Assembly: GCA_964016885.1 (NCBI GenBank)
Contig: CAXHJY010001376.1
Location: 16,813 to 80,812, forward strand
Reading direction: 5' to 3'
Source: Eledone cirrhosa
Taxonomy: Eukaryota
Length of the DNA: 64,000 bases
Shown: in pieces, positions 31,849-33,761 of the stretch
Numbering within the stretch: position 1 is the first letter of the stretch
Layout of the letters: every line of letters begins with the position of its first letter
Program-made: the position numbers and the translations under genes
The notes under the pieces: generated by a model
Databases searched by the model: none
What the model saw: the letters and a program-made list of their open reading frames with translations, nothing else
What the model was told of the DNA's origin: nothing

Positions 31849-31887
<39 letters not shown>

Positions 31888-32362
31888 ATACTTGGGGAGG
31901 GTCATACTTGTGTAATATTGCCAGAATTAATAACAGAACACACTCACTGTTTGGTTGGTTTTCGCTTCTCGCTGTCTTTTATATCTGCAATCTAGCTTAT
32001 TCGGTCCTCAATGTTGCCATTGACTGACCGACGGTCAAAAATAATACAGATACAATATAGACACAAATACATATATATAGTTTACATAATTTACATAAAT
32101 CTTTCGTTGCACATCTGCAACATCGTCAGTGGAGTTATATTTTCCTCCTGTTGTGTTGTACTGTATGTCTACGCCATTTTTTATTCAGTCTGTCTATATA
32201 TTTATTTATTTATTTATTTGCTTGTTTGTTTATTTTATTTTGTCTTCTTTGCGCATGCGTTTGCGTGTGTGTATAGTGTTATGTTTGCTGTGTGACTAGT
32301 GTGTATAGTGTTATGTTTGCTGGGTGACTAGTCTGTGTTTATGTGCTTGTTGTTATTGTGTC

Positions 32363-33127
32363 ATCAACCGCATGCAGTTCTCTGGCTACAACCAAAGAGA
32401 CAGAGTCAGAGTATACGAAGGAGCCATGGAAAAGTATAAGACCCTCATAGAACTGGACATGAAAGGAATTTGCCCATTATACAGGAGCAAATCATGGAAT
32501 AGCTTAGATAGGGCTAGACACAAGATAGGGAAAGCCACATGATGGTACGACAACCAGAGATACCAGAGTGTCATGTTTGTGGACGCCACCCCTGGAGGGA
32601 AATTAGCTAACCAGTGTAGAAAGGCCCTGAGAAAGACCCACTTAAAAATAAAGGTGGTAGAAAAGCCAGGAACCACCATAAAATCCCTGATCATCAAAAC
32701 CTACCCTTTTAAGAAAACCCACTGTACCAATAGGAAATGTATCATATGTAAGGTGAACCCCCGGATAAACTGTAAAACTAGAAACGTAGTCTATAGCATA
32801 AGATGTACAGAGGGTACTTGCAGAAACATGACAACAACATACATAGGTGAGACAGCTCGTAGCATAGGTGAAAGGATAGACCAACACTGGGGGGAACTAA
32901 AAGGACGAACAAACGGGTCAGTACTATACGAACATGCTAGACAACAACATGACGGTAACATAGACAACATAGAAATTAGAATAATATCTAAACATAGAAA
33001 TGACCCAGCAGATAGGCAAATCAGAGAGGCCAGTGAAATAGAAATTAGAAGACCAAAGCTAAACAGAAAGAATGAGTGGAATAACAACAACACCCAAACA
33101 AACAACACTGACATAAGAGAAGTATAA
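32363..33127 (+). pseudogene. PLE ORF C-terminus: post-RT region, Cys-rich linker and GIY-YIG endonuclease (in-frame TGA at 32540)
   Basis: PLYRSKSW..WY..VMFVDATPGG; C-x4-C-x2-C..C; VVYSIRC....YIGETARSIGERIDQH; HARQQH; RQIREASEI...PKLN. Confidence 0.88.
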
Positions 33128-33387
33128 ATAAGTAAATAAAATAAGATAAATAAATACATACACAAGCACAATAACAACAAGCACATAAACACACACTAGT
33201 CACCCAGCAAACATAACACTATACACACTAGTCACACAGCAAACATAACACTATACACACACGCAAATGCATGCGCATAGAAGACAAAATAAAATAAACA
33301 AACAAGCAAATAAATAAATAAATAAATATATAGACAGACTGAATAAAAAATGGCGTAGACATACAACACAACAGGAGGAAAATATAA

Positions 33388-33470
33388 CACCACTGACGAT
33401 GTTGCAGATGTGCAACGAAAGATTTATGTAAATTATGTAAACTATATATATGTGTTTAAGTCTATATTGT
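33388..33470 (+). ncRNA. Hammerhead-like core in the PLE pLTR
   Basis: CTGACGA-T-GTTGCA-gatg-TGCAAC-GAAA; stems I/III uncertain; mirrored at 32102-32130. Confidence 0.5.
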
Positions 33471-33680
33471 ATCTGTATTATTTTTGACCGTCGGTCAGTC
33501 AATGGCAACATTGAGGACCGAATAAGCTAGATTGCAGATATAAAAGACAGCGAGAAGCGAAAACCAACCAAACAGTGAGTGTGTTCTGTTATTAATTCTG
33601 GCAATATTACACAAGTATGACCCTCCCCAAGTATAACAATATTTGTTTCGACACACGATTTCATATAAAAAACCTCGCTA

Positions 33681-33761
<81 letters not shown>

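Follow-up and report, generated by a model that had tools for sequence, protein, structure and literature searches.

The element between positions 31881 and 33684 raises the question of whether a single retrotransposon remnant can account for the fold-back elements that lie between (TA)n arrays in the 64,000-nucleotide stretch of DNA analyzed here (the window). A sequence-only reading had proposed that it does, as a Neptune-like, GIY-YIG-encoding Penelope-like element (PLE) that drives the other families. We find that 31884-33683 is a 5'-truncated PLE with a C-terminal endonuclease (EN), and we consider it very probable that this main copy, taken as a whole, is best explained as a dead, fairly young 5'-truncated PLE insertion in (TA)n.

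A truncated PLE between two (TA)n arrays

The main copy has the following layout.

31847-31883, left (TA)n target array
31884-32360, minus strand, inverted 5'-truncated copy of the terminal region, beginning at the arm end, without tail
32129-32102, minus strand, second predicted hammerhead core, in the inverted arm
32361-33127, plus strand, remaining 3' part of the PLE ORF, read from 32363, with the end of the reverse transcriptase (RT) thumb, the linker and the EN
32723-32773, plus strand, Cys linker CX4CxxC-x7-C (C121, C126, C129 and C137 of the remnant)
32786-33064, plus strand, GIY-YIG EN (VVY...YIG, C148/C153/H191/H196, R171, H175, E222, N234)
33167-33642, plus strand, pLTR-type terminal region, the portion duplicated in the inverted arm
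33391-33428, plus strand, predicted minimal type I hammerhead
33617-33682, plus strand, 22-codon ATG-initiated open frame over the arm end and tail
33643-33683, plus strand, one-sided tail of 41 nt, up to 44
33684-33894, right (TA)n target array

The two arms lie head to head, and 31881-32360 matches the reverse complement of 33167-33642 with 97.5% identity over 480 nt (7 substitutions and one 5-nt indel), as expected from the ~480-bp inverted arm reported earlier. The (TA)n arrays described on both sides are likewise present, at 31847-31883 and from 33684. Since the arm end (ATAT) runs into the TA target, the tail length is ambiguous between 41 and 44 nt, a range that includes the 43 bp first given. 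The term "pLTR" holds only in part: a terminal region is present by position, but the name is purely positional because the tandem direct repeat is absent from the main copy. No target-site duplication can be read, since the insertion lies inside (TA)n.

This architecture of inverted arm, tail and (TA)n targeting is already published for PLEs. An inverted 5'-truncated copy, a 30- to 40-bp one-sided tail and a (TA)n bias are common among them (PMC8557442), and the same layout is described in A. vaga, where the pLTR and tail cover the first 12 and 22 codons (PMC3846280). In a search of the 64-kb window with a profile of the protein lineage, neither a full-length copy nor an RT core nor a direct pLTR tandem came to light, so a parent PLE is presumed. 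With the octopus calibration of PMC13282606, the arm divergence of 1.5% gives a rough age of ~2 million years.

The remnant encodes a thumb, a Cys linker and a GIY-YIG endonuclease

The remnant frame (32363-33127) has 254 codons and a single in-frame TGA at 32540-32542, which the sequence-only reading did not mention. That reading did recognize the end of an ORF with a Cys-rich linker and GIY-YIG domain, and we recovered all of its parts: CX4CxxC, VVY...YIG, CCHH and the R/H/E/N residues. In an 18-row alignment, the linker, VVY/YIG and the two Cys they enclose, the two His and R/H/E/N are invariant or nearly so. A selenocysteine reading of the TGA was rejected; given that its alignment column is variable and not a Cys column, the TGA is a nonsense change.

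General domain searches returned little. Pfam gave no family at E ≤ 1 for the remnant protein; among 22 long relatives, its matches were weak and fell below the cut-off (two to RVT_1, one to GIY-YIG). The AlphaFold model of the remnant (mean pLDDT, 79.5) superimposed on the GIY-YIG domain of I-TevI with a Z score of 10.5 and a root mean square deviation of 2.1 Å over 88 residues, a match of a predicted structure that is evidence of fold rather than of family. Foldseek with this model gave no hit at E ≤ 0.001, with GIY-YIG domains as its top rows, while a sequence search of solved structures yielded only two weak bacterial RT matches, and a scan of prokaryotic genomes found no relative.

Domain order was more informative. 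Among 162 relatives (6, 6 and the best 150 of 2,527 matches), RT motif 5 lay upstream of the matched region in 25/162 and downstream in 0/162, most of the others being fragments. A profile built from 14 long relatives retrieved a second set of 85 proteins, in which RT preceded EN in all 38 of the 38 having both motif 5 and an EN match. The closest named relative among the matches listed was the Octopus vulgaris hypothetical RT protein P0205 (57% over 168 amino acids [aa]), which was sister to the window protein in a 107-row FastTree tree (support, 1.0); by this kinship the host is probably an octopus. The thumb-linker-EN order in the window, together with the absence of motif 5 downstream in any relative, supports the original identification of a GIY-YIG PLE; clustering with non-PLE GIY-YIG proteins, which would have spoken against it, was not what the 25/162 upstream and 0 downstream placements indicated.

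A second O. vulgaris protein, the dynein regulatory complex subunit 6-like model P0232, has the RT of this PLE lineage as its first ~150 residues and is probably a gene-model fusion.

The terminal region carries a hammerhead-like core

By motif and pairing, the terminal region carries a minimal hammerhead-like core beyond chance expectation. It comprises CUGACGA, an extra U, a 6-bp stem II with G10.1-C11.1, GAAA, a self-complementary AGAUUU stem III and UUA; stem I has 2 bp, and the predicted cut, if the ribozyme is active, falls after 33426. The hammerhead-like core of the sequence-only reading thus has a location, 33393-33420, and a 6-bp stem II that shuffled sequence reaches on average 0.01 times per 64 kb. 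Across the window, cores with a stem II of at least 6 bp numbered 4 (the two arms, a diverged sister at 35222-35432 and family D, both described below), compared to 0.01 on average over 100 shuffles.

The sister copy carries two compensatory stem II changes, on both sides of each pair, although covariation was as high in 48/500 shuffles and, with two independent sequences only, is not significant. Its stem I has 0 bp. The lowest-energy fold makes stem II but not the whole ribozyme, and an Rfam scan had no hammerhead among the best 150 of 379 matches listed, the top ones being microsatellite matches to microRNA models. Short-helix PLE hammerheads with traits that match the main-copy core have been described (PMC4209133).

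Related pieces share two fixed ends at (TA)n

Further pieces related to the main copy lie elsewhere in the window.

27152-27365, plus strand, same family, tailed short fold-back whose left arm stops ~10 nt before the arm end
27388-27423, minus strand, same family, inverted tail-only piece flanked by two (TA)n arrays
31490-31561, plus strand, same family, arm-only piece without tail, between (TA)n
54154-54327, plus strand, same family, near-perfect palindromic fold-back with tail, arms ~68 nt, 2-nt junction overlap
35222-35432, plus strand, diverged sister family, predicted hammerhead core, same arm end, without tail

The window contains 7 occurrences of the arm-end motif and 4 of the tail motif, where chance predicts 0. 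ORF-less fold-backs had been said to share the arm end and tail of the main copy; they do recur, but in the 27152 copy GTATAACAATA is absent from the left arm, which breaks off ~10 nt early. Outer ends are fixed while inner junctions differ from copy to copy, arm lengths being ~68, 77-90 and 477 nt. The pieces consisting of only an arm or only a tail terminate at the two fixed sites as well. Given these fixed outer ends and variable inner junctions, the 27152 and 54154 copies seem to have been truncated separately, and more severely, within this family rather than to derive from a short master. The profile of the protein lineage matched nothing else in the window. A private base is common to both main-copy arms and absent from every other copy; since it is found in those two arms only, both derive from one source.

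A (TA)n array abuts 12/12 ends of the 6 related pieces (TA run within 4 nt), a situation that holds for 2.9% of background positions. In a control repeat of ~185 nt, 1/36 ends lay at (TA)n by a somewhat more permissive criterion. Although the 12 ends do not represent independent events, the contrast with the control is still large. With arms that flank a PLE ORF remnant and 12/12 ends at (TA)n, the arm, tail and (TA)n signature can be tied to PLE retrotransposition for this family, as first suggested, and copies lacking the (TA)n association were not found among these pieces.

The control is a dispersed repeat with 18 BLAST matches, sometimes in inverted pairs, and is not TA associated.

729-1152, 15073-15258, 36284-36588, 43322-43501, 46404-46544 and 52249-52433, examples of the ~185-nt dispersed repeat

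How the inverted arm and tail may have formed

We propose that an intact copy, presumed to lie elsewhere in the genome, made the RNA and an RT-GIY-YIG protein, and that a nick introduced by this protein into a (TA)n array served to prime reverse transcription. PLE nicking and target-primed reverse transcription are established in vitro, where both strands of AT-rich DNA were cleaved and two internal RT start sites bracketed the tail of a Poseidon element (PMC11167929). Copying would have had two fixed starts ~42 nt apart, one at the tail end and one at the arm end; the fixed ends themselves are observed here, and their reading as RT start sites is carried over from PMC11167929. One strand would have begun at the tail end and ended after 1.3 kb, and the second terminal-region copy, which ends at the arm end, is joined to it head to head, a structure that is observed. 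The short copies would be products of the same reaction halted earlier.

As to the origin of the two arms, we put at roughly an even chance, and as slightly likelier than a fold-back, that they are two cDNAs primed from both strands of the self-complementary TA target. Somewhat below that we place self-priming: a single cDNA, or an antisense template, would fold back on itself to be copied, with trimming of the product by the endonuclease at the arm end. Self-priming would fit the private base common to both main-copy arms, palindromic junctions like that of 54154 were read in this way in PMC3846280, and PMC8557442 attributes the tail to EN-mediated resolution. The 54154 junction itself points the other way: a fold-back there would have to turn on a loop of 1 nt, whereas the 2-nt overlap would let two cDNA ends anneal, and it is because of this overlap, a single case, that annealing of two cDNAs is favored. 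The arm-only and tail-only insertions imply that each fixed end can occur alone, and the in vitro start sites that bracket the Poseidon tail (PMC11167929) also argue against self-priming. The two-cDNA reading has an analogue in L1 twin priming.

The tail and arm end may also hold coding sequence. The ATG at 33617 opens 22 codons across both, and the first codons are kept in the sister. This frame fits the A. vaga pattern and is suggestive of the start of a next ORF unit, as a lead only. Against a profile of the N termini of 22 relatives, the peptide scored below most shuffles (1686 at or above it); in pairwise comparisons with those N termini, the best score was reached by 52/2000 shuffles and the nearest-clade sum by 234/2000. 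The peptide ranked ~10th among 1366 ATG windows, and its likeness to an N terminus is not significant.

A splice-donor-like GTGAGT word lies at 33572, 45 nt before the 33617 ATG, with GTGCGT in the sister. The junction of the 54154 fold-back (54221) falls on the GTGAGT word, and no consistent acceptor was seen.

Affiliation of the lineage

The sequence-only reading called the element Neptune-like on the premise that a Cys-rich RT-EN linker is typical of such PLEs. Neptune does have this linker, but so do Nematis and Naiad (PMC8557442), and it is therefore not diagnostic. The remnant has a CX2-5CxxC linker ahead of a C-terminal EN, and its CxxC-to-C spacer is 7 residues long, as is typical of its relatives (6 to 9 in 95 of the 104 proteins with the pattern, out of 163 including the window's). 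By our hand counts in Fig. S2 of PMC8557442, the spacer is 7 in three Nematis rows and 25 to 27 in four Neptune-group rows, so the linker of the remnant is of the short Nematis type as judged on those three printed rows. The remnant EN ends in P-x-LN, like that of Nematis or Poseidon, and not in GLN.

The RT had to be judged on the relatives, since RKDHK, the insertion and the motif A-to-B features come from them and not from the main copy. The 85 proteins, found with a profile that itself contains the insertion, have RKDHK in 76/85, TDKS in 56/85 and GG[APS]IG in 59/85. Motifs A and B are 127 to 151 aa apart in 69/71 (131 aa in P0205), the other two, at 61 and 71, being weak canonical-type matches. 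By hand count in Fig. S1 of PMC8557442, this distance is ~60 to 63 in Neptune, Nematis and Poseidon, 87 in one Naiad and 118 in human TERT. The added length is a fingers insertion of ~70 aa with residues conserved over 53 sequences (CP-x-R...GR-x-P, W...P). The RT tree was a quick version with two long-branch canonical-type rows and no named PLE reference among its rows.

Judged on these relatives against the printed rows, the RT is neither that of Neptune (DKG, PKIHK, no fingers insertion) nor that of Nematis (KTHK, GLAMG, short A-to-B distance). Taken together, the Nematis-type linker spacing (7 aa rather than 25 to 27) and an RT that fits neither clade leave the Neptune-like label unsupported. 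On the strength of sequence motifs, we raise the possibility, somewhat less likely than not, of an unnamed PLE clade with a C-terminal EN, a Nematis-type linker and a ~70-aa, telomerase-length RT fingers insertion; it is set apart by comparison with few printed rows of the named clades. We regard an ordinary Neptune element, or a member of the paraphyletic group labeled Neptune in Repbase, as rather unlikely. The C-terminal EN, CX2-5CxxC linker, CCHH, hammerhead and (TA)n preference would all suit Neptune, and the group is paraphyletic in Fig. 8 of PMC8557442 and may include lineages unlike its few printed rows. Weighing against it are the spacer of 7 versus 25 to 27 in the four Neptune-group rows, the P-x-LN rather than GLN ending, and the relatives' RKDHK, TDKS, GG[APS]IG and long A-to-B distance versus PKIHK, DKG, GxxMG and ~60.

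The proposed unnamed clade has at most 2,527 clusters at E ≤ 0.001. GGPIG, GGAIG, PLYR and QFSGY were absent from the available supplement of PMC8557442, whose protein file apparently covers new clades only, and from the available supplements of PMC12602865 and PMC3846280. No lineage with such an RT was named in the titles or abstract openings of the literature found, nor was this one described in the available passages of PMC12602865 and PMC6765202 or in the first part of bioRxiv 10.64898/2026.07.22.740005.

Other fold-back families and the question of a driver

Seven fold-back families could be compared (X, the main family, and A, C, D, E, F and G). In each, a tail-less arm lies by (TA)n and the other arm is extended; placement of the outer end at (TA)n is clear for X, A, C and D but less so for E, F and G. 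Family D (34867-35190 and 36099-36225) is a fold-back between (TA)n with a 70-nt one-sided extension and a complete predicted type I hammerhead at 35109-35145 (stem I, 7 bp; stem II, 11 bp; stem III palindromic). Family F (63534-63930; third copy at 9-120) is a fold-back with a complete predicted type I hammerhead in both arms. The hammerheads of D (34937-35190) and F share a 7- to 8-bp stem I and a palindromic stem III. Cores were also detected in one C copy and in an element at 31121, while the core scan found none in A (two copies scanned), E or G. Family A consists of eight pieces.

16021-16221, 23151-23246, 25239-25398, 27467-27662, 31647-31846, 44461-44660, 47423-47620 and 53274-53464, family A

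All are flanked by (TA)n and share a fixed arm end while differing at their junctions; 7/8 have a fixed tail of ~80 nt, and no ORF was seen.

The element had been put forward as the driver of these families, a role that its own sequence contradicts: the main copy has no intact RT-EN ORF, and since its RT core is absent and its frame carries a stop, it cannot supply RT. Nor did the lineage profile find another piece in the window that might. We therefore regard it as very unlikely that this element or its family drives families A, C, D, E, F and G in trans. The head-to-head arm, one-sided extension and (TA)n beside the tail-less arm are common to all seven compared families, and nonautonomous PLEs and trans-mobilization by pLTRs are described in the literature (including PMC3846280). 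However, beyond being truncated and interrupted, the main copy shares nothing but simple repeats between its terminal region and 10 other elements, D and F have different hammerheads of their own, tail lengths differ (41 to 44 nt here, 80 in A and 70 in D), and the available text of PMC3846280 reports no sign of A. vaga PLE types mobilizing one another. The earlier suggestion that the element explains the other families consequently survives by analogy only, the 10 elements having no alignment to the terminal region except simple repeats. Alignments of the 49107 and 31121 elements to it scored above all shuffles but were rejected as simple-repeat matches.

The other fold-back families would most likely arise by the route proposed for the main family, each from its own parent PLE. 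Their own complete hammerheads independently support a PLE origin for D and F, which, judging from those motifs, are probably separate PLE families with a different parent. A PLE origin is plausible for family C and can be suggested for A, E and G by analogy only. It is hardly credible that the short fold-backs instead derive from MITE- or Helentron-like DNA transposons, with the ORF copy as a composite formed by chance, since, despite MITE-like inverted ends and TA flanks, the arm of this family lies directly 3' of a PLE ORF, its ends are asymmetric and its junctions vary; for family A alone, where arm lengths cluster (6 copies, ~45 to 58 nt) and the scan showed no hammerhead core, such an origin is unlikely but less so.

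The comparison also offers a hint as to the inner copying start. The template past the arm end matches the TA target by 3 to 5 bases in X, A, D and F and by at most 2 in C, E and G; at least 3 matching bases in 4/7 families has a P value of about 0.005 under a simple null, with matches counted by eye and post hoc. The inner RT start may thus be set by pairing of 3 to 5 nt between the nicked (TA)n end and RNA UAU(A).

Other features of the window

Several further observations concern repeats of this kind. An unrelated element at 31121-31376 lies between (TA)n and has a minimal hammerhead core of the GAAACGUC type on the minus strand (31239-31216). By eye, a GAG(T/C)-type word, GAGTACTC or GAGTGCTC/T, recurs in extensions among families A, C, D, E and F and is absent from the main-element tail. 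A further family (156-350, 34454-34622 and 39401-39496, minus strand) has CTGA(T/C)GA and after it a short end close to TA; scans did not find its GAAA half, and it resembles the "half core" label used for some Naiads in PMC8557442.

A 9.7-kb array of 810 copies of a 12-bp unit occupies 1845-11544, where one plus-strand frame is open for 3240 codons and is Thr/Ser rich and mucin-like. A 159-residue open stretch at 55707-56183 ends in REL-type endonuclease-like sequence, presumably similar to non-LTR elements. No tRNA was found in the window.

Implications

The main copy serves as an anchor: ORF-less fold-backs between TA arrays can be extreme truncations of PLEs, liable to be filed by annotation pipelines as MITEs or unknown repeats. 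The graded series of tail-only, arm-only, short and long fold-backs offers a way to test, from genomic copies, how the inverted ends and tails of PLEs arise, a process that PMC8557442 describes as still undefined. If the unnamed clade is real, it breaks the published contrast in which only PLEs with an N-terminal EN carry an IFD, and, if the lineage is indeed unnamed, its telomerase-length insertion, giving an A-to-B distance of ~131 aa versus 118 in human TERT, bears on the relationship between PLEs and telomerase.

Comparison with known PLE systems

The element shares with canonical PLEs that have a C-terminal EN (PMC8557442, PMC3846280 and PMC11167929) an RT thumb followed by GIY-YIG with CCHH, an inverted 5'-truncated copy at the 5' end, a one-sided tail, a terminal-repeat hammerhead and AT-rich or (TA)n targets. 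In contrast to them, the main copy lacks a direct pLTR tandem, its tail is 41 to 44 nt rather than 30 to 40, and its relatives have the ~70-aa A-to-B insertion that canonical PLEs lack according to PMC8557442. Its sister in the tree, P0205 of O. vulgaris, matches it over the thumb, linker and EN start, but at 57% identity it is a separate family, and it carries no PLE clade annotation.

Naiad and Chlamys elements likewise have (TA)n targets (octopus Naiads included), inverted copies, tails and a fingers insertion. They differ in that the EN is C-terminal here, the insertion of the relatives is ~70 aa rather than ~20 to 40, and a predicted hammerhead is present; the N-terminal EN of Naiad is at odds with the thumb that precedes the EN in the window and with motif 5 downstream in 0/162 relatives. 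The Hydra clade, which is present in O. bimaculoides, has a C-terminal EN, KDHK, (TA)n targets and hammerheads in common with this lineage. However, CCHH is present here, the linker is CX4CxxC rather than CxCX5C, and the relatives have YVDD and GG[AP]IG where Hydra has YRDD and MGSYDG.

Neptune shares a Zn-finger-like linker motif, CCHH, a C-terminal EN and a microsatellite bias, whereas its printed rows differ in the spacer (25 to 27 rather than 7), the GLN ending that is missing here, the RT motifs and a shorter A-to-B distance. Nematis matches in the 7-residue linker spacer and the P-x-LN ending of the EN (three rows in Fig. S2 of PMC8557442), but its RT has SDK[RG], KTHK, GLAMG and an A-to-B distance of ~63, compared to TDKS, RKDHK, GG[AP]IG and ~131 in the relatives. 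Finally, measured against the D. virilis-type PLE hammerhead (PMC4209133), the putative core here is without the bulge in the middle of helix II and its palindrome depends on G-U pairs, but the two agree in a 6-bp helix II with an extra 5' nucleotide and G10.1-C11.1, a short palindromic helix III with a 2-nt loop, and a 2-bp helix I.
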